40,246 nt of DNA from Psammoneis japonica. Taxonomy: Eukaryota. Positions 1 to 26,663 of the stretch are shown piece after piece (positions within the stretch are counted from its first letter, which is position 1; the number at the start of each line of letters is the position of its first letter). The DNA is taken from assembly GCA_008632985.1 (NCBI GenBank), contig QPGO01000361.1, forward strand, positions 1 through 40,246, given 5' to 3'. Made by a program: the position numbers and the translations under genes. The notes under the pieces were generated by a model, which saw nothing but the letters and a program-made list of their open reading frames with translations, ran no database searches and was not told where the DNA came from.

Positions 1-928
1 AAATGAAAAGGACAAATCAGGTGCAGCCAAGTGGAAGGCGGCAATGAGCTGTTTCTTCAACAACTTGGGGTCAAGCAAAGTTGACAAACAACATTGTTTT
101 AATGCCGCTGGTCTGTGGGCCACTGATGTGGTGTGCATGGCTTCTTCATTGGCAATGATGATGAAAGTTGTGTCCTCTTTGCCCAGCAGTTCTTCTTTTT
201 CAAGCTCATTTGAAGGCCAATTTCTGCTCTGAAATGGCATTTTGTGGCAAGGAGCAGTTTTTTTTTGCATTGACAGCATGGCCCACAATGCAGACTCATC
301 AGCCATTGTGATTGTGGGGAGGACAGCTGTTGGTCAGGTGCTGGCACAGAGCCACAAAATGGGGCCTGCAGCAAAGCTGTGGTCCATTGCAGCCCTTGTT
401 TCTGCTCCATTGCTGTGCTCATGAATGAAGGTCATGACTGAGGAGTGGCTGGTGACTTGCTGGATTGCTCAAATGATGATTCGGGAAGAAAACTCTTGGC
501 ACATTTGACTCAAGTTGTGGGCACACAAAAAACAGCTGGAATTTGACCCCCCTGAAGCCATGAAGCACACAAGACATGAGCATTGTCCTTCTCCCACTTT
601 TTAGATCAATGTCTTGAGCATGCAGCAGGCAGGCATTGCTCATGGCACTCCTGGACATTTGAGGGTGGAGCTGACTTTTTGCGAAGCACACTTGCAACAA
701 GGGAAAGTGCAAGAACTGATTTTCTCAGAGATGTTGTTGGTTGTTGGCCAGCAGCAACCTCCATTTCACAACCCCAAAGGTGCTGTTAACTTTGCATCTA
801 TTTGTGGGTGTTTTGTTGAAAAAGGGGGTTTGTTTTTGCATGTGTGAAAGCATGATGGAGCTGGGTCTAAGCCATGTCATGCTGCAGCAGCATGAGCACA
901 ATTGATTTTGTGTCACATCCATTCTTTA

Positions 929-1450
929 ATTGCACTCAATTCACCACAAGTGTCAAAATCCCTTGATGTGCATTGACACTCTGCTTGAGACAAATGACTG
1001 TTTGCTTGAGCACCCACTGAGTGCCAGTCATCATGGCAAATCACAGATCACAAAAGCCTTTGATTTTCTCGAAAATCTTGAGATTCGCAGGGGCAGGCAA
1101 GGTTGGGTGTGTGTGTCAAGGAAGAAGCCAACTGCCTGGTGTGCTGTGGTGCTTTGAGTGACACGCTGATGCAACACCAACAAGTGTGCTCACTGTGCAA
1201 CACTCTCCACACAAACTCTCCAAATGAGCTGCTCCAGTGACATGACGTCACTCCAAAAAAAGCACCAAATGTGCTTCCGTTGCCATTTGCCATCTTTGTG
1301 ATTCTGTCACTCTTGAGGGTCCTGTCATTGATTGTGCAAAACAATTGGCTTCATGCCAAGTGCATGAGTGTGGTTGAGAAGCATTGTTTGTTTGGTCCCG
1401 TTGATTCTCACACCCACAATTTGAAAGAAGATGTCTGCCACACCCATTCT
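929..1450 (+). pseudogene. Decayed copy of the upstream region and 5' end of the GT32 gene at 3228
   Basis: ORF 1271..1453 (FAIFVILSLLRVLSLIVQNNWLHAKCMSVVEKH) aligns with FAIFMILLLMRVLSLIVQNNWLRTECMSAVEKH of ORF 3228..4667. The upstream DNA aligns with ~2895-3230. Confidence 0.9.
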
Positions 1451-1456
1451 TGAAAT

Positions 1457-1560
1457 TGCAATCAATTCACCACAAGTGTTAAAATCACTTGGCGTGCACT
1501 GACACTCTGCTCAAAGACAAATGACCATCCACTCAAGCACTTGCTGAGAGTGCCCATCTA
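1457..1560 (+). repeat. Second decayed ~100-bp copy of the GT32 upstream segment (direct repeat of ~929-1030)
   Basis: Both places read caattcaccacaagtgt..aaatc..cttg..gtgca.tgacactctgct...gacaaatgac. Also similar to 2895-2995. Confidence 0.85.
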
Positions 1561-3227
1561 TCAGCATGCTTGTTCTCCAGGAATTCATGCTTCCCACGGA
1601 GGAACACGGCAAACCAAACACAGCAATCCTGGGGAATTTTGGGGAATCTCACAGCAAAATGCAGCTCACAGCAAGCACACTGCACCTTGAACTTTTTTTG
1701 CACATTGTGGTCAGCAAGGAAGGCTCTGCAGGCTTGGCACTCATGTGAGCAGGGCATTTCTGGGATGGAGTTTTGGAGCTGTGCGCAGCTCTTGTCAAGA
1801 GCGAACAAGAGACAACAGCCCTCATCAACTGTCTTTCATGATGTCAATGTGCTGCACTCCTCTGTCCTGCAAGCCACTGCAGCTGTGCCAACAGAAAAGT
1901 GGGAGTTTGACACACATGGGCTCCTCAAGAATGCCTGGGAAAAGGGTTGAGTGACCTGTGCAGGAGTCCAAATGGGGCACAAGTGCTTGGGCACATGTTT
2001 CGTGTGTGTTGTGCAAAATTGTGAGACCATTTTGCATGGAGTGCGTGCATGTGCAACAGTGGGACATGCAGAGCTTCAGTCTTTCCATGGAACCAATCAC
2101 ACTTGGCACTGTGTGTGTGTCCCACGCAGACCCTTCATGCAAGGTGAGTCACTTGCGCGATGGCCAGTTGCGCCGGTCTCAGTCGCATGGATCTCATGCA
2201 GCCACCCCTTGTGGGATTCACACTGGGAGTTGCATTTTCTAATGCACACTTCTGTGGGATCAGCATTGCTGTGGACAGCCTGCAGATGCAGGAAGGTGGC
2301 ATCATCACTTGGCGGCTGATGCTGGACAGTTGGCAGCACAAAGCTGAGATGTCCGGCCTCCTTCCACAAAAAGACCAGTCTCCTGCATGACTCAACAAAC
2401 AAGCAGAGAGATGGTGCCAAACAAGGCTTTGGATGTGCACTGAGCAGAATCAACAAGATGCCCATCTTTCCTTGCTTGAAACATGCTGAGAAAACTGACA
2501 AATGAGCCGACCATCTCGGCTGGTGCCTCCAGGCCCCTTCTTCAACTCAGTTTTGTCTCTTGTCTGTGCAGCAACAAAAAAAGAAGTGGGCAGATGAGAG
2601 GGGCTGCAGAACAAGAAGACATCCTGGGGAAAGACATTTTCAAATGGTGGATAAGCTGGCAAAATCCGCAACGCACTTCACACAAGTTTTGTGCCTCCAG
2701 GTGCCTTTCTCTGCTTTCCTGCTTCTCGCTTCTCGCACCACTCGCTGTGCACTTGCTGTGCAGTGCATGTCGTACCGTATCGTGTCTGTGGTTGGCAAGA
2801 CATTATCATTTTTTATGAGAGTGGGTCATTGCTGTTGTTTTTGAAATTTTTTTTATTTATCATCGGATAGTAAGAATAAGTATAGAATAAAGTATAAGTG
2901 TTAGAATTACTTAACATCTATTTACCTTCTATTAAGTAAAATTATGTCTTTGTTATTTATTGCAAACAGCCGTCCACTTAAGCGACCAACGAGTGCCGGT
3001 CATGACAGATCACAGATCACAATCGATTCAGATTCTTCCGAAAATTTCTCGCACACAGCAACAGCGAAAGATCTCAGATCGCACAAAAGGTAGGGGGTGT
3101 GTGTGTTGCCCGCCGGTGCTTCGGTGCTTTTAGTGCCGTGTTGAAACGACATCGATAGATACGCTCACTGTATCGTACTCTCTATACTGTCAGTAAACAG
3201 ATCCGTCGAACGAATTACTCCAACAAC

Positions 3228-4667
3228 ATGACGACACTCCGCAACAAGCACCAAACACGCGTCTCCTTTCGTCGAATAGTGATAAAACCTCCGTTGATAT
3301 TTGCTATCTTTATGATTCTGTTACTCATGCGGGTCCTGTCATTGATTGTGCAAAATAATTGGCTTCGGACCGAGTGCATGAGTGCGGTTGAGAAACATTT
3401 GTTTGCTCCCGTCGATTCTCACAACGGCAATTTGAAAGAAAAGGTTGTGCAACCAAATTCGTCCGAAAGAGTTCTAGCCAGGGGGGATGATGACAATAAT
3501 GATAAGTTTCAAAACAACGACATTCATGACCTTGAGGAGAGCTTCCGAGGTATGGGAGTAAAGTATCTACGTCGCATCCCCGTTGTTCCTTCCAACGAAA
3601 ATGATGAATCGGATGATGATGATGACGATAAGAACTCCGACGAAGACGTAGCAAAATCAATCCTTGCTCGTATCGCTAATGGCGTGGGAAACGACGATGA
3701 TGCATATGATGATGATGATGCAAACAGAAATGGCGATAGTTATGAGGACGACGACGATTCGGATGGCGATGGTGATAATTCTTACAACGATGAAGATATC
3801 TTTGTGGATGACAAGAACAACGCCAACGAGCCTCCTCCTCCTTTTCTCATTGTCAAGCCAGATGCTTCCATCGAGAAGATTGCAGAATTGCCCGTCGCGG
3901 CGACTGTTTCAGCGGAAGAAACTATTCCCCCGATTTTCCATTTTGCATGGCTGTCATGCAAAACCATGAGAGAGGGAGAGGCCAACAACCCCCCCGATCA
4001 CGTCATGAAAAACATGGCGAAATGGCAAAAGGTACACGCCAAGAATTGGACCACGGTTCTTTGGAACAACGAGATGGTTGGCCTTCACTTTCCACACTTG
4101 GTCGATTTGCTTTCGACCGTTTGGAACGAGTCGTGGGCGTCCGATATCGTCCGCTTTGCGGTTCTTGACAAGTTTGGTGGCATGTATCTAGACACGGACA
4201 ATGAGGTTGTACGACGCGTTGATCCAGTGGTCAATCAGTACACTTCCTTCACGGTCTGCCAGGGCCCAAGGACGGATGCTCCGGACGTGTCGCATCTCAC
4301 AATGCCATATGGAGGCTGCAAGGGCGTCGGTACTGCTGTCCTTGCAGCTAGAAAGGGCAGTGAATTCATAAAGGATGTATTGAATAACGCCATCAGGAAT
4401 TCCTGGATGACAATCAAGAACAGCATGGACTTTACACTGTATGTTGCGGGACCATGGATGCTTTCCCAATATACCTTCAAGCACAACATTGCCGTTTTGC
4501 ACGCCACCACCTTTTATCCGTGCGATGGCTACTGCTCCGCGAAACAGAGGCCGATATCAAGCTTCAAGAAATCGAAAACGACCTTTGGGGTGCACAGAGG
4601 AGCGCATTCTTGGAGAAATAAGATTACAAAAGATGACAGGCACGAAAAGATAATTACAGAATGGTGA
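3228..4667 (+). CDS. GT32 / OCH1-like DXD glycosyltransferase, type II membrane protein with an acidic stem
   Basis: 479-aa ORF with an N-terminal TM segment, an Asp-rich stem, and the motifs IPPIFHFAW and SDIVRFAVLDKFGGMYLDTD typical of the Gly_transf_sug family. Confidence 0.88.
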   Translation: MTTLRNKHQTRVSFRRIVIKPPLIFAIFMILLLMRVLSLIVQNNWLRTECMSAVEKHLFAPVDSHNGNLKEKVVQPNSSERVLARGDDDNNDKFQNNDIHDLEESFRGMGVKYLRRIPVVPSNENDESDDDDDDKNSDEDVAKSILARIANGVGNDDDAYDDDDANRNGDSYEDDDDSDGDGDNSYNDEDIFVDDKNNANEPPPPFLIVKPDASIEKIAELPVAATVSAEETIPPIFHFAWLSCKTMREGEANNPPDHVMKNMAKWQKVHAKNWTTVLWNNEMVGLHFPHLVDLLSTVWNESWASDIVRFAVLDKFGGMYLDTDNEVVRRVDPVVNQYTSFTVCQGPRTDAPDVSHLTMPYGGCKGVGTAVLAARKGSEFIKDVLNNAIRNSWMTIKNSMDFTLYVAGPWMLSQYTFKHNIAVLHATTFYPCDGYCSAKQRPISSFKKSKTTFGVHRGAHSWRNKITKDDRHEKIITEW

Positions 4668-5789
4668 CGGGTTGGGGCTCCTTTTACGATATGAAACATG
4701 AACTGTTGTTGCTGTGCTGAACGGAAATGTGATACTTTAAACAATTTAAAAAGGCAGACAAACCTCATTTCACCACCTCTTTTTCTTCTGGTCCAAAAGT
4801 GTTCGAAGCAGCAATGAGAATCCACAGCAACACGGCATCCGTCTGGGCTGTGCCTAAATGGATCTTAAAGTTTGAGCCGTGTGTTGAGCAATGCCTGAAT
4901 GCGTACCCGGTTCTTTGAAAGACAGGCAAAGTAGGGTCCCATGATCAACGGTAAAATAACAATGTTCTTGGGGCCAAAGGCACATGTCCTCTTCTGCAGC
5001 AAAACACGAATTTCTCACTGCGAAATCATTGCCGCATTTCCCTTTCATGCCACAGGAGGGTTACCCAGTGGATCGTTTCCATCACAAAATGGGCCATTGT
5101 GTTTCCTTTTATGCTGCATTTACTTGCCGCATGGATTCCATGTGTAATTCAGTGACTCTGTGTTGGGTGGAATCAATTTCAATGAATGTTGTGAGTCTTG
5201 TTTGACTCTGAAGGTTCTCACATGCTCATCAGCTCCAAGGTGCCACCACCAGGCACAGTGTGGTCAATTGGCAAAGAAGGAACTCACTCTTTTCAGGCTG
5301 TTGTGGGTTTGTTCCAGTTGGGATTCTGGGTCTTGCTCAGCAACTCAACGACTTGGCTCTGATGGAATTCAACATTTTCAAATTGACTTGATGCTTCTTT
5401 GACTTGCCATGTGCCTGCAACATCATTTCATTGAAACAGGCCATGATTTCCTCAGCAAAATCAGGCCAGCCAAATTTTCACTTTTGCACTTGAACTCTCC
5501 CCTGGCCAGACAAGGCAGTTCCAATGAAGAAGCCCAAGTCCCACAGTTGGCACGTGGCACTGAATCAGTTTTGATGAGCTCAAACATGATTTTGAGGACC
5601 CAATGATGCCTGCAACAGCTGGGTTCTTCTTGGCATAAAATGTGAACCTGTGGATGCCAAAGAGACAATGAAGGCTGGGTTGCCACCCATGCCAGGCCTT
5701 GGAAGAATGTGGGTGCTGCTCTGCATGTGCAGCCTTGCCAGAGTGCTTCCCACCTGCACTCCTTCATGAGCACACTTGTTGCCTGCTGT

Positions 5790-7100
5790 TAAAATGTGTG
5801 GCCTCATTGCTCCTTTTCACCCACTCTGTTGACTGATCTGACAGGCAAGGGAGCCACTTCAAACAATGGACAGCTGGCACCTGCCAGAGAGCAGTTGATG
5901 AGATGAAGGAAGTGATTGCACCCAAAGCACCACTCCTCACCTGTCTGAATGTAAACCCAACATGCCACATCCACACTGATGCATCTGACTGCTGGGTGGG
6001 TTCCAACTTCATTCAAGATGGTCAGCCTCTCATGGCAGCATGCTCATCTTACAAGCTTTTGCCAGCTCCTTGGCAGCATGCATGGCTGCTCAACAAGTTC
6101 TTCTCTACATTGCATGGGTGCATGCTGGCCACAAAAAACTCACTTCACACACCTTGAATTTGCAATGAGTCCTCAGGTGGCAACTGCTCCTTGAGGAGCA
6201 TGCTCCACATTTTGTTTGCATTGAAGGCAAGGAAAACATGCTCTTGTCTTTTCTTTCTCAGCTCCTGCACTTGGCTCCCCACCTTCAGAGGGAAAGAGGA
6301 AGTCAAGAATTGTCTGGCAATTGCAAAGGCGCAAGCCAGTCAATTTTGCAAACTTGGGTGTGTCAGAATTGACCAAGGATGAGCTTGAGAATGCATGCTG
6401 CTCAAGTGTGTGTGTGCTGCTTGTGAGAACAGCACGCAGTCCAGCAACACCTTTTTGTCCCTTTTTGGTTAGCCAGAGCTGTTCAAGTGCTGCCTTTTGA
6501 AATTGCCCCAGGTTGCAAGAGGGACAGAACCTGACAGAGATGCTGCGGTTGCAGCAGCTCCAGAGTTCAAGGAAGTGCAGTTGAGTTGATGGCAGCAGCA
6601 GAACACAAGAATCTTTGTTGTCAAGATTGTGAACAATTGTGCATTGATTTGTTGTCATCAGCAGCCAACTGGTCCTCCTGGAGCTGGGAAGATTTGCACT
6701 CTGACCAATTTGTTGTCTGACATTGCTGTGTGGTGCCACCATGTGCTTGGCACTGTTTTGTGGAGCCTGACTGTGCAGCTGCATGTGAACACTTGTGTGC
6801 ACACTTGTGTCATCCTGCATTGCACTGTGTTTGCAATGATTGTGGTGCTTGCCAATGTTGCAAGCATCTTGGGCTGGGCTGTGGCAAGCTGTTGGAAAAA
6901 AGGCTCCATTTTTTCTGGCCATGGGCTGAAGCTGCAGTCAATTTGATTGGCTTGCAGATTTGAGTTTAAAGCTCTCACTTGTGCCAATGCTGAGTTTTTG
7001 CTGGAAATTTTGCCAAATGTTGATGTTGAGGAGCCACCAAGCGGCAACTGTGCTGCAGCAACCGTCATCTCCAAATGAGTGCATCAAATGGCATCCAACA
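5790..7100 (+). mobile_element. Ty3/Gypsy LTR retrotransposon pol relic (RT connection, RNase H, integrase)
   Basis: Successive decayed motifs: WPH..LTDLTGKG..WT..CQRAVDEMK; HIHTDASDC..G....QDGQPL; HKKLT...Q*VLRWQLLLEEHAPHFVCIEGKEN; WCHHVLG; CGACQCCK..G.GCGKL....PWAEAAVNLIG. The RT-RH-INT order is Gypsy-type. Confidence 0.88.
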
Positions 7101-7299
7101 TTCTGTTCATTGTGCTTGTCATGTTGGCTCACCTGTCAATGTTCAGCAGGTGAGCAAAACAGCTGACACAGTGCTTTTTGGCTGCAGCTTTGTGTTTGAG
7201 CAGATTGCCCAACAACTGTGCTGCAAAATGATGCAAAAATGCCACCAAACTCATTTGGAATGGTGCATGACACATGGGAGCATGACAAAAACATCATCA

Positions 7300-7500
7300 A
7301 TGTCACAGTCCAGCTGTGCAAGGTCTCACCTGGAGCTGGTGGAGTGCACCAGCAAAGAAGATCCTTTGAGAACTCTGGCTGCCAAGAAGTGTGAAACATT
7401 GTTTGACTGTGCTTTGGGCAAGTGGAAAGGTGATCCCTGCCACAATCTCCAGCTGAAGGATGGAGTTGGGCCATTTCATGCTTGACTGTGTGACGCTCCA
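7300..7500 (+). mobile_element. Second Ty3/Gypsy fragment (segment just upstream of RT)
   Basis: KKCETLFDCALGKWKGDPCH.LQLKDGV.PFHA resembles the Gypsy KYETLFDGTLGKW.G.PY.I.LK.G..PYHA segment. It lies after the integrase, so it is a separate copy. Confidence 0.75.
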
Positions 7501-7629
7501 ATGGCCTTGGAGCCTTTGTGAGCAAAGCGCACATTGTGTGGCTCCTCGCCCCAGCCAAGCATCACACACAGCAGCCAACAAGCTGCCGGCTCCACGCCAA
7601 GGTGCAAACAATGATGGACAGATCGAGGA

Positions 7630-8370
7630 ATGTCAGACATGATGAGAGTCAAGCAAAGCGTGAAGGATGGACGTCATGTGGAGCCCAGCTCTCACCAGAG
7701 ATGCAATCATCGAGCACGTGGTGCCGAGTGCTTTCTTGGATTGTGCTTCGAAGTGCAATCCTCACCGCCTCTAACGCATCCGCTGGAAGCATCTGAGGAT
7801 TGTGCAACATCTCGTCTGCCAATCCTGCTAGAGCTTGGCACATCACTGAGCGATGGAGAGCTCCAAAATCCTTGTGGTCTCGGTCTCCGTTGAACTCATC
7901 GATGCCCCATTCCAATGGATTCTCTGCCATTTCCCGTTGCTCTTTGTCCTAGTGCTGAGGAAGAATGAACTTTCGTGGCTTCACCATTGTGTGCCAGGAG
8001 AAAACGAATGAATGCCTCAAAGGCAGAAACTCTCTTTGTTTGTGGTGGTTTCACTCGAAAACTCGACCCAATGCGGCGAAGGCTGCCGAGAGTCATTGCG
8101 GAAGATGTGCTGCCACCAGCCAGAGAGCAGAAGGCCACCACACCTGAAATTTTGGATTTGTTTGGCACTTTGCCATGCCAAGGGCCTGCCACACTGAAAT
8201 TTTCGACTCTGTCCAAAGCCACATTGGATTGGCTGCAAATCTCTAGTCTGTCAAAATTGCACCCTGCACATCTGTTCAACGATCTACCACGCGCGTGCCT
8301 CTTGTCACTCTGTCTCCACTCCACTGCACCGCATCTCGAAGCTAGCCAGCTGGCTCTCTGGAGGTGTGCT
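7630..8370 (-). pseudogene. Relic of an unidentified protein-coding sequence (TA-depleted, CpG largely retained)
   Basis: Overlapping ORFs 7896..8324 and 7649..7930 read like a globular protein but contain no Tyr, with His/Cys where Tyr would be plausible. Family not recognised. Confidence 0.45.
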
Positions 8371-11222
8371 CTCTAGAGCAGAGCGGAACCTGACTCCTGC
8401 AAATGTGCTTTGTGGCGGTGTTCCTCACTTTTCTGAGCTTTTGGCACATTCTTGGCATTTGCACCAGGAGACATTTCCAACAAAGTGTGAGAACAAAATG
8501 CTTGAACACAAGTGTGCATGTGTGTGCTGGAAATGTCAGTTTTGAGTTTTGTGCCAGCTGAAGTTGACACCCTTTCACAAAAAAACAGCGCTGAACCCGT
8601 GCATGTTTTCTGCCTGCAGGGCAGGCATGAACACATGTGTGCCAAGGTCATGATGCTGCCAAGCTTCATGTCAGCACTCATCACATTTTTCTGCATGATT
8701 TGCAGGAAGCTGTGCCCTTCTCAACTGGGGCAAGTTTCTTTTTTGGTGCCTCACACCCATCTCAACAACTCACTCTTGCACATGAATCTCCCACTCAGGA
8801 GAGCAAATCCTTGTGAACAATGGCGCTGTTTGCTGCATCTGCTGTGAAAAGTGCTGCTGCTGCCAGTGGAGTGGTGCCTCTGCCATGCCTCCTCTCCTGG
8901 CGGCCTTAAAACACCTTGTGCAGAGAGTGTTTGGGTGTTGCACAACTGCACCAGCACTGCCAGCCCTTTGTTCAACCCAGCTGCTTTGCCCTCAAAAGCC
9001 AGCTTCACCTCCAATGTGCTGCTGTGAAGAGCACAATGGCTTGTGTTTGAACCTGGTCCATGATCTGCTGACAACCGGCATGCCCCAGAGGTCAGCATTC
9101 TTGAAGCACTGCAGTTAACAGCTGCAGGTCTCAACTCACCCCAAAGATGATTTTTTGGAAAACACCACCCCTGATGAACATTTTAAGTGCTGCTTCAATG
9201 CCATCATGTGGAAAGCTGTGGCTCCTAAAAAAAGCCCTTGGCAGTCTCACTGGCTTGAAATTTTGCAGCCTGCAAAGCCAGAAAACAAGTGGAAAAAGAA
9301 CAAGCATTGTCAGCTTGGTCAGTTTTGTGCCCCTGGTGGGCACAGATCTCTGCAGTCATGTTTGCCTGCTCAGTGCAGCAGAGCCATTCAATCTCATGCA
9401 CTGGCAAAAACTGGCAAGACCTGGTGACAAGTGCTGCTCTTTGGCCAAAATGACAATGCTGGCTCTGGTTGTGTCACTCAATTTCTTGTCCACATTTTTT
9501 TCTGGACTCACTCTGGTGCTGCATGCATCAACCAACTCATGCAGCCTGTGACTGTGCTCTTCACTCTTGCTGCTTGCTTGTGACGTCCCGTTGAGCACAC
9601 ACACAAAAGCAGCACTCATGATGTCCATGTGCCCACTCTGCACATTTCCAAAAATGTGCTCTCTTTGCATCCATGCTGATCTCCAAAAATGTGAGCCTTG
9701 CACCAAGTCTCTTTGTGAAGTCCCTGTGCCAAAATCCTGCTTGTTTCCATGGCAGAGTTTTTTTTACAAGTGACACTTTTGTCCAGACATTCTTTTGGCA
9801 ATGACTTCTTCCACCTTCAATGACTCTGCTTGACTTGCTCCCAGCACCACTTCAGTTTTCTTTTTGGTGCACATTTCCTGCTGATGTGTGCTTCCATGTT
9901 TTTTGTTTGGCAAACATTTCTTGCAGCTGTGTTTGCTGCTTTGGTGATCTTGCACAAAAAGAGCTCTTGCCATCAGCATGTCTAGTTTTTGTCATTGGCT
10001 CACACCAAGAGAGCACGATCTGTTTTCTGACAAGTTCATTGGCAAAACAGCAGACATGTGGTTGCATCCACGGGTTGTCAACAAAGCAGCAGTCAGCCAC
10101 AAGCAGCCACAAGGTCATTTGTGAACCCAAAAAGTCAAGCTTCTTTGTGAAATTCTGCTGGGTGATGGCAATTGGAGAGCTCATTTTGACTCTCCAACAC
10201 TTTGTGCCTTGCAGGGGTTGTGAGCTCCAACTTGAGCTTGGGTCAAAAAATGCACCCAACCAATGAAAAGGGCTTTGTTGAGCCCCATTTCTGGTTGCAG
10301 TGTGCAAAAATTCTGGTGGCGCACATGCCCATGTCATGGCAAGATCTGCAGACCACCAGGGTCATGATGAGCAGCAAGTTTCTTTGTCAACTGGTGCTCA
10401 TTGTGTTGTGCCAAGCACATCAAAATGCTCGTCTCCTTCCTCTTGCAGCCAAGTGTTGTGCATCTTTGCTTGGGCTGCCCAGCTGATGGATTTTGCTGAG
10501 TTGTTCTTCTTGAGCTTTTTTCACACTTCTTCTGGCCAGCTGTGGCTGGTGTTGTCCAGTCAGTCAACAAACAAAAGAGTCACTGTTTGGAGTTGATGCA
10601 ACTCAACTTCTCATTGTTGGCGCATCATGTGTTTTCCTCATGTGGCAGTCATGCAGCACACCATCTCTTGTTTGCACAATTCAGAGAGAGGGGCAGAGTT
10701 TCACACACAACAGGTGGTTCCAGGTGAGCCCTTGCTTTTTAATGCTGCTCCAGAATTTCTCACAGAACAAAACACTTTCATGTCATCATCATCACATGAC
10801 AAAGTCATGTCATTCCTTGCCAACAATGCTCAGTGTTGACAAGCCAGCAATGAGTCATTGGGGTCTGATGAAAAATGATCATGTCTTTTTCTTCTGCTCT
10901 GCAGTGATGCTGCTGGCTACAGGCAATCTTTGTCATGTCTGTTGAGTGAATCTCTTGCAGTCATGTGCCTGCAGCACTTCGTTTGTTCAACAAGCACCTT
11001 GGCATTAAGCATCTTGCACCCTTGCTTGCTGTTGCAAGGGGATAACAAAAGAAAAAAGAGGTGCGACGCGGCGAAAACTCGGCATGGTTGCGGCGCAATT
11101 ACAAAAAAGAGGCAGTCTGAAGAATCATCCATGTACATTATAGTTTGTCATTTCAGCGCAAAAGTAGCCAAAAGGAACCTTAATGACTCGAGTGGCATTA
11201 GAAATATCCACCTTTTAGCTCA

Positions 11223-12262
11223 CTATTCATTTTTAAGACACGGTCGACCAATGTGGCAACACATTACCACTTTGTGTTGCGGGGTTTTCCAATGGATCCG
11301 ACCATGCCCTGCCGAAGTTGGAGTGCTGCTATTCGTAGGAGTGCTAGTAGTCGTAACAGACGGTCCCGACCAAGCGCCCGAACCGTAGGGATCACCTTCT
11401 TCTTCTTCTTCCACTTGTTGCATGCTGAGTTCGTGTTGGGTTTGCTTGAAATCTTCATTGGTCTTGGTTCGGCAACAGACGGGATCGTGTTGAGGCAAAC
11501 AACACACGGCACACGAGCAAACCATGTAGAGGGAAAAGGCAACAATGGAATAAATACCACCCAATCCGAGCGAACATGAGCTCACGTTGCTTCCTCGGCT
11601 GTGTTTGAAGAAATAAGAAAATTAGGATGAGTTGTGCGCAAATATAATAAACAAAACAAAGGAGAAAACGATAGTTCATTACATACCAAAAATCTTCCGT
11701 TCCAAAAATGGCAAACGTCATTCCCTGACAGGCATAGGCGAGAAAAAAGACGAGATTGACAAGAATCTTGTTGCCCTTGCCACACTTGTTACAGAAGAAC
11801 AACTCGACCAAAACAAGCAAGAGTCCCAAACTACCAAATCCCATGGCCAGCATGGACCCGTACTGCGCCGCCTTGATGTAATTGTCCAACTTTAATCCAT
11901 CCGGGTACGCGGCACATCCCACCAAAAGGTCCGCTTCAAACATGCCCACCGTACCCGACGTGGTAAAGTTGCCCAGCGTGCTATTGTTGGCTGCAAGTTC
12001 ATCCTCCAAATCTTCAAACCATTGTGTGGTGCCGTCTTCGAATTTGAAAAATTCACAAGACAAATAGGTCAAGACGGAAAAGGCAACACCGGCAAGTGCC
12101 AAAATGGCAACGAGGTATCTATTATGGACCGAGAGAAAAAAAAACGCAACGAACGAGTGAGTTGTAGTTATACAATAGCTAACACGTACAGTGCAATTCT
12201 TTTATTGAATTCTTCTTCCTACCGTACCTGCTTGCCTCTCCAAAACTTTGACAGCACCTCAT
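11223..12262 (-). CDS. Predicted four-TM, Cys-rich membrane protein, 280 aa; exons 12262-12228, 12118-11687, 11598-11223
   Basis: Two GT-AG introns join ATG 12262 (MRCCQSFGEASR), ORF 11455..12102 and ORF 11223..11585 in frame (843 nt total). Four hydrophobic segments. Confidence 0.8.
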
Positions 12263-12677: not shown

Positions 12678-15510
12678 ATGAAGTCTGGTAGTATCCAATG
12701 GATTTGTAGTTTGGTGTTGTTGGTGCAGCAACAACACCAACCATCCAGCGCATGGACGACGACGGGATCATCACCGAGCACGAGAAGAACAACAAGAAGA
12801 ACAACTTGTTGCTCCTTGTTTGCAAAAGTCAATGGTGACGACAATGATAGTATAACAGTCAATGGCGATACATTAGCATCCATCAGTGACGACGACAGTA
12901 GTACAAACAATGAGAATGAGTATCGCATGACACTTTCTGGTTATACGACAAAGGATGGTTATTCTCAATTTCTGCGTGCCAAACGAGAATACATGCGTCT
13001 CGAAGAAAACGAAGACGGTTATGGCGTCGAATTCAAATCCAACAACAACAAGGGATGGATTGGCAAGGCGGCACGGTTGCCCTTGCGTGCCATGAACAAA
13101 ATTGGAAAACGCCTCGTGCAATCGCACCGCGGTCCACCGAAACCGGGTACACTGATTTTGGTCCGTCACGGAGAATCGGAATGGAATGCCAACAAGACCT
13201 TTACGGGATGGGCCGATCCCAATCTCAATGCCAAGGGATATCGGGAAGCCGAACACGCGGCGCGGTTACTATTGGAGGGTGGATACGAAATTGATGTGGT
13301 CTTTACGTCTCGTTTGCAACGTGCCATTCGAACGTGTTGGATCGTGTTGCAAGAACTCAATGAAGTCTATCTGCCCGTATTTAAATCGTGGCGTTTAAAC
13401 GAACGCATGTACGGAGCATTGACGGGTTTGTCCAAGACGGAAACGGCACAACAACTCGGTACCGAATTGGTCCAAGCTTGGCGTGGTTCACTCAAATCCC
13501 GTCCGCCGGCATTGAAACGGTCCGATCCGTATTGGCCGGGACGGGATCGTAAATACTTTGATTTGACCCAAGAACAAATCCCCATGACGGAAAGTTTGTT
13601 GGATTGTATGGAACGGACGGCACCCGTGTGGCATTTTAAAATCAAAAAGGAAATTCAAAACGGACGCAATGTCATGGTTGTGGCTCATGCGAATACCTTG
13701 CGGGGACTTGTCAAGACTATAGATGGTAAGTGTGTGTGATGAATATAGTGGAATGGAGAAAAAGGCATTGTTGTAGTGTGTTTCTCACAATACTTTTGTT
13801 TTGTTTTATTCTTTGTTTCTTCAGAAATTGGCGATGATGAAATTCAAGGTATGTCGTTTTTGGAATGATGCTTCTCCCTTTTGGGCCCACTCTGTCTCTC
13901 TTACCCATTCCTTCTTTTGTATTATTTGACACACAGAGGTGGCTATTCCTACGGTATTCCATCATTTACAAATTTGACAAGGACATGAAACCCGTTCCGC
14001 CGTCTCAACAGGGCCATCAAACGGCATCCCACTTCACATGAAGGGACTCTTTTTGGAAAAACCGGGATTGCTCAAACAAGCCTTGAAGCAAGAAGAAGAA
14101 TGGCGTAATCGCATTCCCGGTTATGATTCCACCATGGGACGGACCAAAACACCCATGACGCCCCTGGAACGGTCCTTGACGAAATTACGAGCAGAACGGG
14201 AATTGGGACAATGGGCGGGACAATTTATTGATTTGCAAGAGGAAACAGAAGATGATGGCAACGATGGAAACATGACGTGGGTCGAAGATCAAGTGTGGGA
14301 ATTGGGATTGGCGGAATTAGAAGAGGGAGGGCAGTTTGATCCGGATGCACCCGTGTTTCACAGCGACGATCAGAATGTCATGTTGGATGATATCGAACAA
14401 GACGACGATGATGAGGAAATGGAAATCAATGGTTATTATGCTCAATCGTCAACGTCGTCGGACAATATCATTAATCAACCCTGCGTCACCAGCATGCCGT
14501 CGCAAGTGCAAGTGCCTGGCATTGGCGACGTACCGGTACGCAAGGGCGGAGTGCTTGTCATCATACGCCACGGCAAGACCGAACACAACAAGCTGGGTTT
14601 GTTTACGGGATGGGAGGACGTTCCGTTGGCCAAGGATGGTATTGTGGAAGCCCAAGAAGCGGGTCGTTTGCTAAAGCTGCACGGATTTGAATTTGATGTC
14701 GTGTACACGAGTTGGTTGTCCCGCGCTATTGAAACCGCGTGGTTTGTCATGGACGAAATGGATTGTCTGTGGTTGCCAATCATCAAATCATGGCGTCTCA
14801 ATGAGCGCATGTATGGCGATTTGACGGGATTGTCCAAGAAAATGGTGGCGCAACGACACGGCGAAGCTCAATTCAAGGCCTGGCGACGTGGCTACAAGGT
14901 GCGTCCACCAAAGGTGTCCTCCTTTTCTCCGAATTATCCCGGCAATGATAAGCGGTATCAAAAGTATCTGAGTGATATTCGTTACTCGGCTCGGGAGAGT
15001 GTGATCCGAAGCATTGAATCTGGTAGTCCGGAATTCCACCGCAAATTTCCCAAATCCGAGAGCCTCAAGGACTGCATGGACCGAACCATTCCTTACTTTT
15101 CGCAACAAATTGTCCCAGAAGCCATTTCACAGGGCAAGCGCGTGTTGATTTCCAGCAGCGAAAACGCAATTCGTGGTCTTTTAATGTATCTGTGTGACAT
15201 TCCCGAAGAATTCGTGACAGAATTGGAAATTCCCAACGGATTGCCCCTGATCTTTGATATTCAATCCAAGTGTCTCAAGTTGTTGGATGACGGGACGGGC
15301 CGTGATCCGCTCGAGGTTTACAACTTTGGCAAGGCGGGAAAGTACTTGTTCAAGCCGTGTCAGAATGAGGACGGAAGTCTTGACGAAGAATGTGACATCA
15401 AGTACATGAGCGATGTTTTCAAAGACAACAAGAAACCTGTTGTAAGCCAACAAGATCAAGAAACACTGGACGAGCTCACGAAGCCAAGAAAAGAAAAACA
15501 AGTGGCGTAG
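12678..15510 (+). CDS. PGAM: Tandem two-domain 2,3-BPG-dependent phosphoglycerate mutase, probably plastid-targeted; introns 13726-13824 and 13849-13936
   Basis: Motifs LVRHGESEWN...FTGW, WRLNERMYG and VAHANTLR, then a second IIRHGKTEHN...FTGW domain. Signal peptide ending SSA-W plus an S/T/R-rich transit peptide. Micro-exon EIGDDEIQ. Apparent single-base indels at ~13950-14037. Confidence 0.9.
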
Positions 15511-16179
15511 CAGTACGAGTAAATTTATCTTCAAATCATAGAGTTTCTCTTCATCCATTTTCTAGAGAAAAGCAATACAAATGCGAAAAAGAAACAACTT
15601 TTATCATTTTTCTGGAGGAGGCAATCTCCAAACATACGTATCCACTGCTCGTCGGTAGCCGCTTGTAAATCTGTAAAGACGTGCTTTTGACCTGCCAAAT
15701 GTGGAGGCATTTTGTATTCAGTGTATAAGACACAATGGATAGCGGTAACAGTTGTGCAAACATAGGTTGCCAATTTCCTACCGGTATGGACGTAATTGAA
15801 AAAGAAAGTGAGATAATCTGCGGTGAAAACACAAAAAATCTCCGCGTATCACTTTTTTATTTCATACCAATTTCTCATGGCTTGCGGACTCAGCACCATT
15901 GTTTTCAAGCAATTCCACGTGATAAAGGAAAGCTGAAAAGGCTTGGCAGAGAAACGGATTCAGCGTTGGTAAGGTTTTCAGTTTGGTGGCAGGGATCGGC
16001 TGATGAACTGATCACACAACTCTTGAATGAGCTCGAAATCATGTTACGGTAGAGGTAGGCAGACAGACGTCGTAGAAATGACCGGTATAGGTAGCTAGAG
16101 CTCGGTCATCGGTCACAGTCATTAGATTTTAAAATTATTGTTCTTTTAGGAGCAAAATAGCAAAATAGTACTTTATTAT

Positions 16180-16341
16180 TTATGCCCTTCCTTGCGATGA
16201 TGTCCAATCGCCCACTTTTTCTTCGAGTGATTGATTACCGGTATCGCACTCCATCCAGCTTTTCCTCTTGTAGATCGAAGGCAACGTGCAAATAGGACTT
16301 TGAAACATCCGTTCAGTTACTGACGGTACACGAAGAAGTAA
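16180..16341 (+). promoter_or_regulatory. Upstream region conserved between the two M64-like paralogs (matches ~23121-23266)
   Basis: Shared blocks tatgcccttc, ccactttttcttc and gaaacatccgttcagtta.tgacgg. Regulatory function is inferred only. Confidence 0.35.
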
Positions 16342-19300
16342 ATGGCAGTATGGATAGACGTGGTTAGACACGTGAGCATGAGCGTCCCAAAATGGGGTTG
16401 TCTGGTCCTGTTGGTTTCATTGTGTTTATTCCGCTTGTGTGCAGCTGCTACTCACACGGCAGGATTGTACTTTCAAGAAAGTCTTACCGGCCCTCTCGGC
16501 GTTGGATATTGCGATGATGAGATGATAAATGTTCTTTCAACCCTGGAGTATTTGAAACGAGTAAACGGGACCCTCAGCGACTGGAACTTTGACATTTCAA
16601 TCAAGAGCTTTGACGATCCCAACCTTGAGTCTAAGCTTGAGTCCTTTACGGTCTTTATCATGCCAGAAGTCGAAATTGGACCTGTTGACGGCTGGGGTGA
16701 AGCCCCCCAACGATTAATGAGATCCTTTGTAGAAAGCGGAGGAATACTGATTATGATGTCTCCAGTTTACGGCGGCCCTCAGTTTTTGAACTCAATCTTC
16801 CCCGGTTGGGATGTACGTCATGGTAGCCGGTGTCGAAGTCCAGTTCCCTTGAACCCAGACGCGGTAGCTGGAACATCCTTTGACGGAGGGCCGGCTATGC
16901 TTGGCTGCCCATTCGCCACGTACGAAATCATGTGTAGAACAGTACCGTGCACGCCGATATATGGGACGCCGCAAGCAGCTTTGTTGGTGTTGTTCCCATA
17001 TGGTTCTGGGGTTGTCATTTATTATGCTTGGGATTACTACAATGGTGGCATGAACATTGACATTCCAGGCGTTGGGACGCACGTAGATTGCCCGCACAGA
17101 TTCGACGATTGGGCCATGGAGATCCTTCCACGATCGCTAAAATACAAAGACTTTGTTGCAACTCAAGGCTCACCAAAACCCGCCGATCAGCCTGCGCCAC
17201 CTCCCGCCGCTCAAAACATCGCAGGGTTATACTTTCAAGAAAGTCTTACCGGCCCTCTAGGCGTTGGACACTGTGATGATGAATCGATTAATGTCATTTC
17301 CTCCTTGGAATACTTGAAACGAATAAATGGAACGCTCCGCGACTGGGATTTCGACATTTCAATCAAAAGCTTCGACGATCCCAACCTTGAGTCGAAGCTT
17401 GAGTCCTTTACGGTCTTTATCATGCCCGAAATTGAGATAACAAGTGATCTATCATATGTGGATGGTTGGGGTGAAACATCCCAACGATTAATGAGATCCT
17501 TCGTAGAAAAAGGTGGAACACTAATACAGATGTCACCTCACTATGGAGGACCGAACTTTGTGAATTCCATCTTCCCAGGATGGGATGTAAGATTTTCTGG
17601 CCGTTGTAGAGCCTCGATGCCTCTAAATACAGATTTGGCAGCTGGGACATCCTTTGACGGAGGGCCGGCTATGCTAGGTTGCCCAAGCTCTACGTTGGAA
17701 GTTAGTTGCGGAACCGTTCCTTGCACGCCGATATACGGGACAGAGAAATTTGCGACGTTGCTGTTACTCCCGTATGGCTCAGGGGTTGTCATTTACTATT
17801 CTTGGGACTTTTTCAATGGTGGCATTAGTATCGACATTCCAGGGGTTGGGACGCACATAGATTGCTCGGCTAGATTCGACGATTGGGCCATGGAGATCCT
17901 TCCACGAGCGCTAGAATACAAGGACTCTGTCGCGAATCCGAGCACACCATCACCATCAAATCAGCCAACAATAGCACCTTCAGTTGTCCAAACTTTGGAA
18001 TGTATTGATGATCCAGAAGGCTGGCATGACTCCGATGGTGACCAATATGATTGCGCCTGGTACGCTGGGGACAACAACTGCGAGCAATACGGAGATTTGT
18101 TCAGCAATCTTGGTGCAACCGCAAACGAAGCTTGCTGCGCCTGTGACGGAGGCAGAATGGTTGCTATGAAAGATTCTGCAGTAACATCGAGTCCGACTCA
18201 GCCACCTACTTTTTTTCCATCGCCATGGCCTACGTCTGGGCCTACAATGAGCCCCACAACATCGGCTCCGACGTTGCCACCAACGACTTCTTTCACACGC
18301 CCACCTACATCATCTCCCTCACCTGCGCCAACAAGTCGTCCGACACCAATGCCAACACTGAATCCAACAGCTTCTCCAACACAGAACCCATCTTTATCTC
18401 CAACAGTAAAGCCTACCCCAGAGCTTACGATACCTCCAACCTCTTTACCGACAAAGTCTCCCACGAATTTGCCTACACTAGCAAGTACATTATTGCCGAC
18501 AAGGTCACCAACACCTATACCAACGTCTCATCCGACGGATCCTCCCACCGCGTCGCTGACACGGGCAACGACTGACATTCCAACTGCAAATCCATCAGAA
18601 GACCCGACCCCGTCACTCTCATCAAAGCCTACACTGAAGCAGACACCCTCACCAACTTTGGAGCCAACGTCTCAGCCAACAAAACATCCAACATCACTCC
18701 CCACAAATCTCTCTACAAAGCAGCCTAGAATACCGACGCCAGCAAAAACCGGGCAGGTGTGCTCCAAAAAAAAGGACTGTACTTCTAAGATATGTAGGAG
18801 TGGAGTCTGCATGGCATCTGCGGAATGCTACCCTGTCAAGCACAGACACGGAACTCGATTTGATATCCATGCTGTGAATCTAGTTTTTGTTGGGTCAGCG
18901 TTCAATACAACAACTCACGAGGCTTGGCGTGAGGAGGTCAAGAAGACCAATAGATTCTTCAGACTTTACAAAGCGTTCGGAAAAGATGTGGATCAGCTCA
19001 ATGTCTTCCTTGTGGAACCTGCTGAATTGAGCGGTTCCTTTTGCAATTACGGATGTCAAAACATTGATCGGTTGCTGTGTTGTGATATAGAAACCGTTGA
19101 AGCTCTTGCAAGCAAGTGTTTCTCAGTCGGTCCCAACCTTCAAACTCTTGTGATCCACAACGATTTGAAGTACGGAGGAGCTGGATACCCCAATCAGAAC
19201 ATTGCCACAATGTCTACGCATCCACTTGGCGCTTTCATTGCTGTACATGAGCTTGGCCACTCGCTTTTTGAACTCAATGATGAGTACATGTATGGCGATG

Positions 19301-20103: not shown

Positions 20104-20401
20104 CTCATTTTCTCAAACCATGGTTCCTCTTGGCTTCATTCAAAGACAAAGGGAATATGCTTACTCCAAACATGTTCCGTATGTGTCTGTTGTCTGTGAT
20201 GTTTCACTGCTTCAAACACGACCCCCTCTCCAGTCAACCTTTTATATCCATCTGTATGGAATGGAAGATCCGAGAAAGGAACCATGGGCTGTTCACGTTC
20301 GAGCAAAAGCATCAATGCAAATTTTCTCTGACTTATGCTATCCTCAAGTTTAACGTCTCCTGAACTATTTCTTTATTGGTTTTGTGTTTCATGGCAACTT
20401 T

Positions 20402-23030: not shown

Positions 23031-23266
23031 CTCATGTCGGTCATTCGTTCGGTCATCGAAAGTCATTTGTGAACGTAATATTCTGATTTTAGTACGAGTC
23101 GAATTAGCATGGACATTTGTTTATGCCCTTCGATCGTTTCGCCGCGATTTTATTATGTCCAGCAATCGTCCACTTTTTCTTCTTGCATCCTGATTTTCCT
23201 TCGCAAATCACAGGCGACGTGCAATAAAGGGCGTCGAAACATCCGTTCAGTTATTGACGGAACAGG

Positions 23267-26485: not shown

Positions 26486-26663
26486 CTCATTTTCTCAAAC
26501 CATGGTTCCATAGGTTGCCAGTGATCATGTCTTTTCATCCCTCCCCTGAACACTGTTCAAGTCGAATCCACCGGGTAGTTGTATTCCGTTGATCAAAATC
26601 CTTGCATCCTCCATCACTGGATTCACCGCACTCATGCTGCGTAGTGGTTTTTCTTGCAAACAA

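Follow-up and report, generated by a model that had tools for sequence, protein, structure and literature searches.

The question raised by this locus is whether the DNA at 5790-7500 of the window (the whole stretch of 40,246 nucleotides from Psammoneis japonica that was analysed) is the remnant of a retrotransposon pol gene and, if so, what removed its tyrosine and arginine codons. The initial annotation had read it as a Gypsy pol relic in which Tyr was systematically replaced by His or Cys, and Arg by Gln or stop codons. Comparison with a profile of 120 relatives confirmed this reading: Tyr was kept at 0 of 14 conserved positions and Arg at 1 of 14.

The profile was built from 120 intact Ty3/Gypsy pol proteins, along which protease, RVT_1, RT_RNaseH, Integrase_H2C2 and rve follow one another; in the relative P0024, for example, RVP spans residues 30-121, RVT_1 272-428, RT_RNaseH 491-612, H2C2 770-822 and rve 852-939. 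Its only match in the window was collinear and lay on the plus strand at 5156-7485. The limits first given thus enclosed a real relic but were too narrow on the left, where protease-region homology extends it to 5156. Nodes 52-179 aligned at 5156-5550 and nodes 476-866 at 5688-6951, on one strand and in the Gypsy order. An integrase placed after RNase H is the arrangement of Ty3/Gypsy elements, unlike that of Copia. The pieces were as follows.

5156..5550, plus strand: protease-region relic (nodes 52-179; Pfam RVP corresponds to nodes 62-153)
5551..5687, plus strand: junction at which the RT core is lost (137 bases against about 890 expected; nodes 180-475 missing)
5688..6031, plus strand: RT thumb/connection and N-terminal half of RNase H (nodes 476-586; iE 0.0013 and 5.2e-8)
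6032..6114, plus strand: RNase H middle (nodes 587-626 expected; decayed beyond HMMER alignment)
6115..6951, plus strand: C-terminal RNase H, linker, integrase H2C2 and start of the integrase core (nodes 627-866)
6952..7302, plus strand: unassigned spacer separating the pre-RT piece from the integrase N-terminus (351 bases, TA and CG erased)
7303..7485, plus strand: pre-RT fragment (nodes 218-274; same frame as 6115-6951)

The stretch is best read as an old, rearranged relic of the pol gene of a Ty3/Gypsy LTR retrotransposon, collinear with the protease, RT, RNase H and integrase order of diatom Ty3/Gypsy (Metaviridae) elements. The named members of its family come from diatoms, two relatives bearing the source names Nitzschia inconspicua and Mayamaea pseudoterrestris. 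The nearest relative found was only 35-41% identical over the matched stretch. A phmmer search with the frame-2 reading retrieved three proteins at E ≤0.001 among 1.84 billion; a word-indexed search with the relic retrieved nothing, and phmmer against solved structures gave nothing relevant, with one chance hit (E 1.8).

The protease piece aligned as two domains in collinear order, one in frame +1 (iE 0.011) and the other in frame +0 (iE 0.069), and each scored above 400 of 400 shuffles. Its active-site DSG has become DSE, and in-frame TGA stops stand at two Arg positions. The nodes missing at the junction include RVT_1 (nodes 314-471) and the YxDD motif (node 421), and nodes 275-475 had no match in the six frames of the whole window at domain E values up to 10; this copy has lost the RT core by deletion. 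In the piece that follows, NYYR has become CC* (asterisk, stop) and YTDASDY has become HTDASDC. Its RNase H part (nodes 527-586) matched the family profile at an iE of 5.2e-8, and Pfam RT_RNaseH_2 matched 5837-6154 (E 8.8e-5) with 22.9 bits, under the curated cut-off of 29.8; the RNase H-like domain was recognised by the family profile and fell short of the Pfam threshold. HMMER aligned nothing in 6032-6114 in its correct frame. The longest piece, 6115-6951 (iE 1.6e-15 and 2.6e-9), reads in frame +1 through part of its linker (6428-6754), and its homology stops at DLIG. Integrase_H2C2 corresponds to nodes 786-838, inside the aligned 627-866 domain, with H798 kept.

The Pfam models proposed at the outset as a check were recovered in part: RT_RNaseH_2 was found, below threshold, but Integrase_H2C2 and rve gave no hit in the translated pieces of the relic and its surroundings. 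The input comprised read-through translations of 5791-7500 and 7300-11201 together with stop-free ORF pieces, namely 146 (at least 45 residues) from 1-11385 and 62 of 113, the longer ones, from the other two blocks of erased DNA. Over the relic, the tract around it and the other erased blocks the search returned RT_RNaseH_2 alone; weak hits to DUF4320, zf-C2H2_jaz, SEHBP, SfsA_N and K1 (E 0.004-0.03) were taken as chance. No frame of the window matched the integrase core, nodes 867-1118 (rve, 868-955). Self-BLAST of the window gave 17 repeat pairs, none of them an LTR-like direct repeat within 4800-11200, and the LTRs of the relic may have decayed past recognition or been lost. Nine in-frame stops lie inside the aligned segments, with at least four frame changes. 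The relic thus departs from intact diatom Ty3/Gypsy elements: it carries stops and frame changes, and neither the RT nor the integrase core nor any recognisable LTR is present.

The occurrence of a pre-RT segment after an integrase had been taken as a sign of nesting, with two copies or more. A pre-RT piece does indeed follow the zinc finger, but this does not establish nesting, because one rearranged copy or two juxtaposed fragments fit as well. A second copy inserted into the first would place nodes 218-274 as they were found, on the strand of node 866 and 352 bases beyond it, and the CpG state switches abruptly at 7490, so that pieces of different history abut there. Against this, no integrase core resumes in the window, 4800-11200 holds no LTR-like direct repeat, and the displaced piece is part of the segment (nodes 180-475) absent from the main copy, which makes a single rearranged copy as economical. 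The match itself is weak. The family motif KYE.LFD..LGKY...H.L...PVHAR has become KCETLFDCALGKWKGDPCHNLQLKDGVGPFHA* in the relic, and the iE of 0.31 in the six-frame scan is poorer than that of the other pieces; taken alone, the segment reached 6.4 bits, whereas the best of 400 shuffles gave 0.3 and none equalled it; the shuffles control for composition only, since the segment was picked after the scan. No homology was found in the spacer 6952-7302 by Pfam or the family profile. Nesting is a reasonable suggestion that we would not favour.

The residues on which the first reading was based were examined against the same profile. Every peptide string quoted was present on the plus strand at the place given: HIHTDASDC (5966-5992), Q*VLRWQLLLEEH..FVCIEGKEN (6163-6237), WCH (6731-6739), GCGKLL (6877-6894) and KCETLFD (7387-7407). 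The nine residue calls within them were all correct, the one at 7390 being the weakest.

5972, plus strand: CAC; Tyr in 108/120 relatives
5990, plus strand: TGC; Tyr in 105/120 relatives
6166, plus strand: TGA; Arg in 119/120 relatives
6181, plus strand: CAA; Arg in 117/120 relatives
6199, plus strand: CAT; Phe in 70 and Tyr in 50 of 120 relatives
6217, plus strand: TGC; Tyr in 115/120 relatives
6734, plus strand: TGC; Tyr in 76 and Phe in 41 of 120 relatives
6880, plus strand: TGT; Tyr in 100/120 relatives
7390, plus strand: TGT; Tyr in 48, His in 31 and Phe in 20 of 120 relatives

The conserved set consisted of 273 aligned positions with at least 50% agreement among the relatives. The 14 Tyr positions within it now hold 10 Cys (TGY), 2 His (CAY), 1 Trp and 1 Phe; 12 of the 14 are therefore TGY or CAY, as TA>TG/CA transitions predict. 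At the 14 Arg positions the one surviving Arg is accompanied by 4 His, 2 Gln, 3 stops, 1 Cys, 2 Lys and 1 Ala. All other conserved residues were kept at 133 of 245 positions, from which the losses of Tyr (Fisher p 2.8e-5) and Arg (5.1e-4) both differed. The predicted loss of Arg through CG>TG/CA was borne out, but its commonest product was His rather than Gln, and one of the three stops at Arg positions is TAA, beyond a single CG>TG/CA step. Five of the nine in-frame stops fall at Arg-majority positions, and TGA makes up 49 of the 52 stops in the three plus-strand frames of 5791-7500.

At the same 14 Tyr positions the relatives carry Tyr in 1303, Phe in 203 and His in 68 of 1651 residues, and Cys is outside their eight commonest residues. 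Because the relatives are rich in Tyr and Cys is rare at these positions, the possibility that intact members also carry the His and Cys of the relic found no support among the 120 public relatives. At node 509 Tyr is present in 120 of 120 relatives and Cys in the relic. Over 528 aligned positions the relic has no Tyr at all, against 3.5% in the relatives, and 6.8% Cys against 1.7%; none of the 120 profile proteins has under 2.6% Tyr. Single TA or CG steps account for only 37 to 39 of the 139 changed conserved positions, 50 of which need at least two steps and 28 a transversion, and a share of the divergence may be family difference rather than mutation.

The same losses were evident at the DNA level. 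The relic (2330 bases) contains 7 TA and 7 CG, where about 156 and 135 are expected from base counts, and TA in erased DNA stands at about 0.05 of expectation. The erasure was not confined to the pol homology.

5150..10950, no strand: whole TA-erased tract containing the relic, 5.8 kb
7490..8400, no strand: island in which TA is erased and CpG kept (TA 1-4, CpG 8-15 per 300 bases)
1276..1429, plus strand: erased duplicate of the 5' end (3290-3440) of a neighbouring intact gene, an in-window before-and-after pair

The left edge of the tract (~5146-5150) is sharp and falls within some 10 bases of where pol homology sets in; the last TA at normal density lies at 5145 and the last CG at 5128, and the gene upstream is untouched. 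The tract is made of fragments of different origin, including 3.5 kb past the pol homology without a recognisable transposon domain, and within it TG and CA are both in excess, CA as enriched as TG. Four erased blocks in the window hold 52 TA in 14,153 bases; the other 26,093 bases hold 1016. In the before-and-after pair TA was lost at 5 of 5 sites (4 to CA, 1 to TG) and CG at 6 of 8, and 9 of the 19 mismatches fall in the four TA/CG classes. Two tandem 1.9-kb gene duplicates of 93% identity keep 76 and 80 TA and 105 and 107 CG. Since these are untouched, repetition as such is not the trigger.

The contigs of run X1 differed from the window at 23 sites in 4800-8600, none of them TA versus TG/CA and six CG versus TG/CA; nothing in this comparison shows that TA erasure is ongoing at the locus. 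One DNA run contains the stretch, its contigs covering all 30 bins of 4800-8600 without joints. This weakly supports the assembly, of which the run is possibly the very source and so not independent. No RNA sequencing runs containing the stretch were listed.

A "dual process" had been proposed to explain the replacements. Both changes are present, but they belong to two separable processes, because TA is lost and CpG kept in two instances. One is the island 7490-8400, which lies inside the tract and starts at the end of the pre-RT homology. The other is P0009, a public relative of 699 residues whose frame is still open. P0009 keeps 0 of 24 Tyr, 38 of 41 Arg and 411 of 505 conserved columns. 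Its changes include Y>H at 14 positions, Y>C at 9, L>P at 7 and T>A at 5, so that 23 of 24 Tyr have gone to His or Cys. Its YxDD motif reads HLDD, where the 120 relatives have Y in 109 and F in 11 at node 421, followed by DD in all 120. Among the 114 relatives of P0009, every one retains Tyr at no fewer than 14 of 25 profile positions. The loss of every Tyr from a protein whose columns and Arg are kept indicates a burst that struck TA alone rather than gradual decay of the whole sequence. Under the genetic code TA>TG/CA cannot turn a sense codon into a stop. Inactivation by TA erasure is therefore by missense only, and the stops arise from CGA to TGA.

Taken as a whole, it is probable that the identification of the relic is right and that two context-specific transition processes acted on it after insertion. 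After its arrival at the locus the relic was mutated together with the rest of the 5.8-kb tract. The first process turns TpA into TpG or CpA, replacing A:T by G:C within TA on either strand. In protein it changes every Tyr codon to Cys or His without creating stops and, in P0009, also Leu (CTA) to Pro and, in codons following a T, Thr, Lys and Asn to Ala, Glu and Asp. The second converts CpG to TpG or CpA, and Arg CGN into His, Gln, Cys or a TGA stop; it would be the usual 5-methylcytosine deamination of methylated transposons. Tentatively, at somewhat under even chances, the first may be the work of an enzyme that edits DNA in silenced chromatin of a mobile or repeat-like kind; nothing observed pointed directly to such an enzyme, to a modified base or to a targeting signal. 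If every tyrosine is lost, that of the polymerase YxDD among them, this alone would be expected to kill the element.

The leading candidate for the first process would be deamination of adenine at TpA, as proposed for Bigelowiella natans. According to a 2026 bioRxiv preprint on that alga (Mettrop et al., 10.64898/2026.01.13.699255), integrated giant-virus and virophage DNA undergoes TpA-restricted T/A>C/G hypermutation, reverse-transcriptase Pfams are enriched among TpA-depleted coding sequences, and an ADAT2-like deaminase is proposed. As in the relic, changes there are reported to be nearly exclusive to TpA, to yield TpG or CpA by strand, and to strike foreign or mobile DNA, leaving TpA depleted and CpA plus TpG in excess. 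T/A>C/G change at TpA was likewise found here (12/14 Tyr, 5/5 TA and 23/24 Tyr in P0009), and mobile DNA was hit while neighbouring genes were spared, as the TA counts of the erased blocks and the rest of the window show. The systems differ in that B. natans is a chlorarachniophyte and the named relatives of the relic's family are diatoms, and in that the target here is an LTR-retrotransposon relic with its surroundings rather than viral DNA. CpG is also lost here, whereas a term search of the main text of the preprint found CpG, tyrosine and stop codons nowhere mentioned. The mutation rate was measured in B. natans, and here the signature is read from sequence. No description of TA erasure in diatoms was found in the literature searched, mostly titles and the beginnings of abstracts.

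In Neurospora and other ascomycetes, repeat-induced point mutation (RIP) converts CpA to TpA in duplicated DNA and so creates stop codons. It resembles the present case in its dinucleotide-context transitions, its mobile or repeated targets, its sharp borders and the dead transposon relics it leaves, but is opposite in chemistry and direction: RIP makes TpA, and here TpA is destroyed with no stops arising from it. C>T change at CpA was not the pattern found, and RIP would not be expected to spare the 1.9-kb tandem duplicates. Decay of CpG in methylated transposons, whose methylation in diatoms has been addressed in PMC9998398, matches the CG>TG/CA changes in transposon DNA and the conversion of Arg CGN to His, Gln, Cys and TGA. 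It explains only half of the pattern, however: neither the island 7490-8400 nor P0009, both TA-erased, shows it.

Passive loss of TA and CG without a dedicated editor, through context-dependent bias of replication or repair or a modified TpA base in silent, methylated, late-replicating chromatin where the relic happens to lie, would account for a regional tract of unrelated fragments, including the 3.5 kb without a recognisable transposon domain, for the sparing of the tandem duplicates, and for a CpG loss that is still polymorphic between the window and the X1 contigs, as slow decay would give. It sits poorly with the fall of TA to roughly 0.05 of the expected number, with a tract border that can be placed to about 10 bases, and with P0009, which has no Tyr but keeps most of its columns and Arg; moreover, the same signature in B. 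natans was reportedly measured as a 1000-fold local rise in rate in only some lines. Passive loss is for these reasons unlikely.

ADAR and APOBEC enzymes of animals edit RNA, or cDNA before integration. They share with the relic deaminase-type transitions clustered in retroelements, and the UA preference of ADAR would fit, U being preferred before the edited A according to 10.64898/2026.01.13.699255. If the RNA of the element had been edited (in the manner of ADAR, A to I at UA), or its cDNA, and the product then copied into the genome, this would explain why Tyr became Cys, a sense-strand A>G change, ten times and His only twice (binomial p 0.039), and why the sense strand of the relic has 303 TG against 249 CA. 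The 10:2 ratio suggests a strand bias, but in P0009 Cys to His is 9:14. Both strands are affected, as the His codons and the enrichment of CA along the tract show; the erasure runs as a contiguous genomic tract 3.5 kb past any pol homology, and the erasure has equally reached a duplicated host-gene fragment that is no retroelement. Editing before integration is accordingly very improbable. That His and Cys are ancestral residues of an unusual functional Gypsy family low in TA and CG gains something from His in intact relatives (31/120 at node 244, 25/120 at node 629), but has next to no likelihood given the invariant Tyr of node 509, the Tyr content of all 120 profile proteins and of the relatives of P0009, and the nine stops, at least four frame changes, deleted RT core and missing integrase core, and for the relic copy it is ruled out by the stops and deletions.

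The two post-insertion processes remain the preferred reading. A TA-erasing mutation process has rarely been described before, and the relic shows its effect on mobile DNA in protein. It supplies a tested protein-level read-out, total loss of Tyr to Cys or His with Arg loss as a separate layer, for a process so far described in one preprint on an unrelated alga, and the TA and CG components can be distinguished within one locus. Retroelement or viral ORFs without Tyr but with Arg intact could serve as a screen in any genome or metagenome, and might also expose spurious "proteins" in public databases. Should an enzyme be responsible, nature would have supplied a DNA editor that changes A to G specifically at TpA. 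It is possible, though more speculative, that diatom-like algae possess a dedicated TpA-adenine deaminase editor, independent of cytosine methylation, that kills newly silenced retroelements by turning every Tyr codon, that of the polymerase YxDD included, into Cys or His and never producing a stop, a widespread defence shared with B. natans. If so, long, tyrosine-free open "ghost ORFs" such as P0009 would be reported as proteins by gene predictors, and TpA editing would be a genome defence in lineages including diatoms and chlorarachniophytes, the mirror image of fungal RIP.

Pfam searches weakly suggested a Gypsy pol origin for the stretch that the initial annotation had called a Gypsy pol relic at 5790–7500. 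RT_RNaseH_2 was the only family found on the read-through frame (E 0.0016), and it matched the stop-free piece 5837–6154 with an E of 8.8e-5 (22.9 bits, under the curated cut-off of 29.8). RVT_1, Integrase_H2C2 and rve gave no match in any frame of 1–11385, so that of the RT_RNaseH, Integrase_H2C2 and rve signals anticipated for the region only the first appeared, as RT_RNaseH_2 and below its cut-off. A HMMER scan of the frame-2 reading against 1.84 billion representative proteins returned three matches (E up to 0.001). One of these, P0007, is an intact RNase H and integrase fragment with exactly the motifs that the initial annotation gave for the family (a run of 44 residues and GQGYGHLP), and a search with P0007 retrieved 569 longer relatives (E up to 1e-10). 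Protease, RVT_1, RT_RNaseH, Integrase_H2C2 and rve were present in the best 120 of the 569 (P0010–P0129); the domains of P0024 stand in Ty3/Gypsy order, and two further relatives carry diatom names assigned by their sources. The 120 relatives were aligned into a profile of 1118 nodes, and the window was searched with it from end to end in all six reading frames, every filter being disabled. Seven matches were obtained, all on the + strand within 5156–7485.

Profile matches in the window
5156–5341, +, protease (nodes 52–112, iE 0.011)
5341–5550, +, protease (nodes 110–179, iE 0.069)
5688–5861, +, RT thumb (nodes 476–533, iE 0.0013)
5846–6031, +, RNase H (nodes 527–586, iE 5.2e-8)
6115–6951, +, RNase H end, linker and integrase zinc finger up to DLIG (nodes 627–866, iE 1.6e-15)
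6428–6754, +, part of the linker, in another frame (nodes 697–803, iE 2.6e-9)
7303–7485, +, pre-RT (nodes 218–274, iE 0.31)

All seven pieces outscored 400 of 400 composition-preserving shuffles, a control for composition only, as the pieces were chosen after the scan. The stretch is thus a Ty3/Gypsy pol relic, with an internal deletion and a truncation. The proposed identity held and every peptide string quoted for it was found on the + strand at its place, but the left coordinate required correction, the true start lying 630 bases further left.

The RT core, nodes 180–475 (RVT_1 maps to 314–471), is missing, and only 137 bases lie between nodes 179 and 476. In the profile search no part of the window matched the integrase core (rve, nodes 868–955), and self-BLAST of the window detected no LTR-like repeats in 4800–11200. 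The integrase zinc finger, which extends to node 866 at 6951, is followed after 351 unassigned bases by the pre-RT piece in the same frame, the weakest of the seven matches. A single, rearranged copy fits this order, and the displaced pre-RT piece belongs to a segment absent from the main copy. Two truncated copies, juxtaposed, also fit. The integrase-then-pre-RT order had been taken to indicate at least two nested copies; a nested pair trimmed afterwards by deletions is one of the three arrangements that fit, but under nesting the broken integrase should continue beyond the insert, and no such continuation was found.

Residue replacement was scored at the 273 aligned positions where 50% or more of the 120 relatives agree on one residue. 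None of the 14 Tyr-majority positions was kept; they now encode Cys (TGY, 10), His (CAY, 2), Trp (TGG, 1) and Phe (1). Only 1 of 14 Arg-majority positions was kept, and its codon, AGG, is CpG-free; the other 13 read His (4), stop (3; TGA 2, TAA 1), Gln (2), Lys (2), Cys (1) and Ala (1). By comparison, 133 of 245 positions of all other residue types were kept (Fisher's exact test: Tyr, p 2.8e-5; Arg, p 5.1e-4), and controls of similar chemistry behaved normally (Trp 7/8, Cys 5/5, Leu 29/40 and Phe 5/15 kept). Tyr is absent from the 528 residues of the relic that could be aligned (3.5% in relatives), while Cys makes up 6.8% of them (1.7%) and Arg 2.1% (6.2%). The intact relatives do not share these substitutions, since the 1651 residues that they have at the 14 Tyr positions include 1303 Tyr, 203 Phe and 68 His, with Cys outside the eight commonest, and node 509 is Tyr in 120 of 120. 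These data confirm that the Tyr and Arg replacement is real and far beyond chance, and the interpretation that it arose by TA and CG transitions is supported.

The seven Tyr and two Arg replacements originally called all fell on the correct profile positions (7/7 and 2/2), although two Tyr calls were softer than believed: the relatives have Phe 70 and Tyr 50 at 6199, and Tyr 48, His 31 and Phe 20 at 7390. The predicted Arg to Gln or stop changes did occur, but the commonest outcome was His. Five of the nine in-frame stops inside aligned segments fell on Arg-majority positions. The relic shows further signs of age: among 139 changed conserved positions, 37–39 are explained by one TA or CG step and 22 by other transitions, at least two steps were required at 50, and a transversion at 28.

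Dinucleotide observed/expected ratios revealed the window as a mosaic in which four erased blocks lie amid ordinary DNA.

Erased blocks in the window
~1–2800 (400-base screen), trimmed 1–2750: block 1
~4800–11200 (400-base screen), 5150–10950 by 300-base counts: block 2, contains the relic
~20600–23000 (400-base screen), trimmed 20650–22950: block 3
~36600–40000 (400-base screen), trimmed 36650–39950: block 4

In the four blocks TpA is at 0.05–0.10 and CpG at about 0.2 of expectation, with TpG and CpA at about 1.8 times expectation; outside them CpG is about 1 and TpA about 0.5. The trimmed blocks hold 52 TA in 14,153 bases, against 1016 in the other 26,093. The relic itself retains 7 TA and 7 CG in 2330 bases, where about 156 and 135 are expected from base counts. 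At the left edge of its tract (5150–10950), TA density is normal until 5145 and CG until 5128, and both collapse from about 5150, some 10 bases to the left of the point where pol homology starts. Because TA-free sequence must yield TGA, 49 of the 52 stops in the three + frames of 5791–7500 are TGA. The block at 20600–23000, between tandem gene copies, is strongly purine-skewed on the + strand (GC skew 0.28–0.37, AT skew 0.12–0.28) and has long open frames on both strands, for which Pfam returned no match. By-eye reading of translations in the normal-composition regions ~12800–15500 and 16000–27300 showed long open frames, with two putative phosphoglycerate-mutase-like genes and putative tandem genes with Pro/Thr-rich repeats and a HELGH metalloprotease-like motif.

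The direction of change was fixed by the one case in which an erased block resembles normal sequence at the DNA level: 1276–1429, a decayed copy in the left-end block, is 86% identical to 3290–3440, the 5′ end of an intact neighbouring gene. Of the five TA in the gene copy none survives in the erased one (four became CA, one TG), six of the eight CG are also gone, and 9 of the 19 mismatches belong to the four TA/CG classes. As the erased copy derives from a host gene, the process extends beyond retroelement sequence.

The dual process proposed initially was upheld in that both TA and CG changes occurred, but the two are separable. An island at 7490–8400 within the tract, which starts at the exact end of the pre-RT homology and whose ORF pieces contain no Pfam family, keeps CpG at 8–15 per 300 bases (18–22 expected) with TA at 1–4 per 300. 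A second case is P0009, a public NCBI record of a 699-residue ORF of the relic's Gypsy family (contig of 2273 bases) with no Tyr. At 505 columns where its three closest relatives (62–67% identical) agree, it matched 411 and differed at 94, the differences including Y>H 14, Y>C 9, L>P 7, T>A 5, K>E 3, N>D 2, I>V 2 and I>T 1, each of these a TA>CA or TA>TG step inside a codon or spanning two codons. Conservation was high for Arg (38/41 kept), Phe (24/24) and Trp (10/10); the YxDD motif reads HLDD, and Tyr was kept at 0 of 23 profile Tyr positions, against at least 14 of 25 in each of 114 scored relatives. P0009 is a TA-erased pseudogene filed as a protein with its frame still open, so TA erasure can reach completion with CpG untouched. 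By the genetic code, a TA>TG or TA>CA step never makes a stop from a sense codon, and the stops of the relic come from the CpG layer (CGA>TGA) and other decay. The relic leans to the sense strand (Cys 10 versus His 2, p 0.039; TG 303 versus CA 249), a lean that P0009 lacks.

Tandem gene copies at 18216–20127 and 24598–26509 (1912 bases, 93% identical) keep TA (76 and 80) and CG (105 and 107), and a second pair, 17221–18438 and 23387–24601 (89% identical over 1.2 kb), has normal counts of both. Duplication of about 1.9 kb at 93% identity is therefore no trigger for erasure, unlike RIP, which would be triggered by duplication of such size and identity and would not spare these copies. Surviving TA in the erased blocks lay in YTAR contexts (TTAA, CTAA/TTAG, CTAG) in 35 of 52 cases, compared with 148 of the 1016 TA outside the blocks (Fisher p 1.4e-16), and none of the 52 was in RTAY (ATAT, ATAC/GTAT, GTAC), which suggests that the process prefers certain flanking bases. 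The survivors may instead have been regenerated from CA and TG, which are abundant there.

The nearest described process is found in Bigelowiella natans, for which a preprint reports that two integrated viral regions undergo TpA-restricted T/A>C/G hypermutation at about 1000 times background in mutation-accumulation lines, and a genome-wide signature of TpA depletion with CpA and TpG enrichment that includes reverse-transcriptase domains; its authors propose an ADAT2-like adenosine deaminase (10.64898/2026.01.13.699255). CpG, tyrosine, stop codons and diatoms gave no match when the preprint was searched for these terms, and our literature search turned up no description of TA erasure in diatoms. 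By analogy with B. natans, TA erasure in the window may have an enzymatic mechanism. Diatom transposon methylation is described in PMC9998398, and the CpG layer matches the outcome expected when 5-methylcytosine decays in methylated transposons.

Contigs from X1, the one public DNA sequencing run that contains the stretch and may be the assembly's own source, span 4800–8600 with no joints and differ from the window at 23 sites there. At six of them the contig has CG where the window has TG or CA. Adjacent double differences, with TG in the window and CA in the contig, occur twice, at 5681–5682 and 5834–5835, and fit separate mutations of a single ancestral dinucleotide in two alleles or copies. 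None of the 23 is TA versus TG or CA. Therefore, CpG decay is still segregating at the relic locus, and TA erasure was complete before the window and X1 sequences split.
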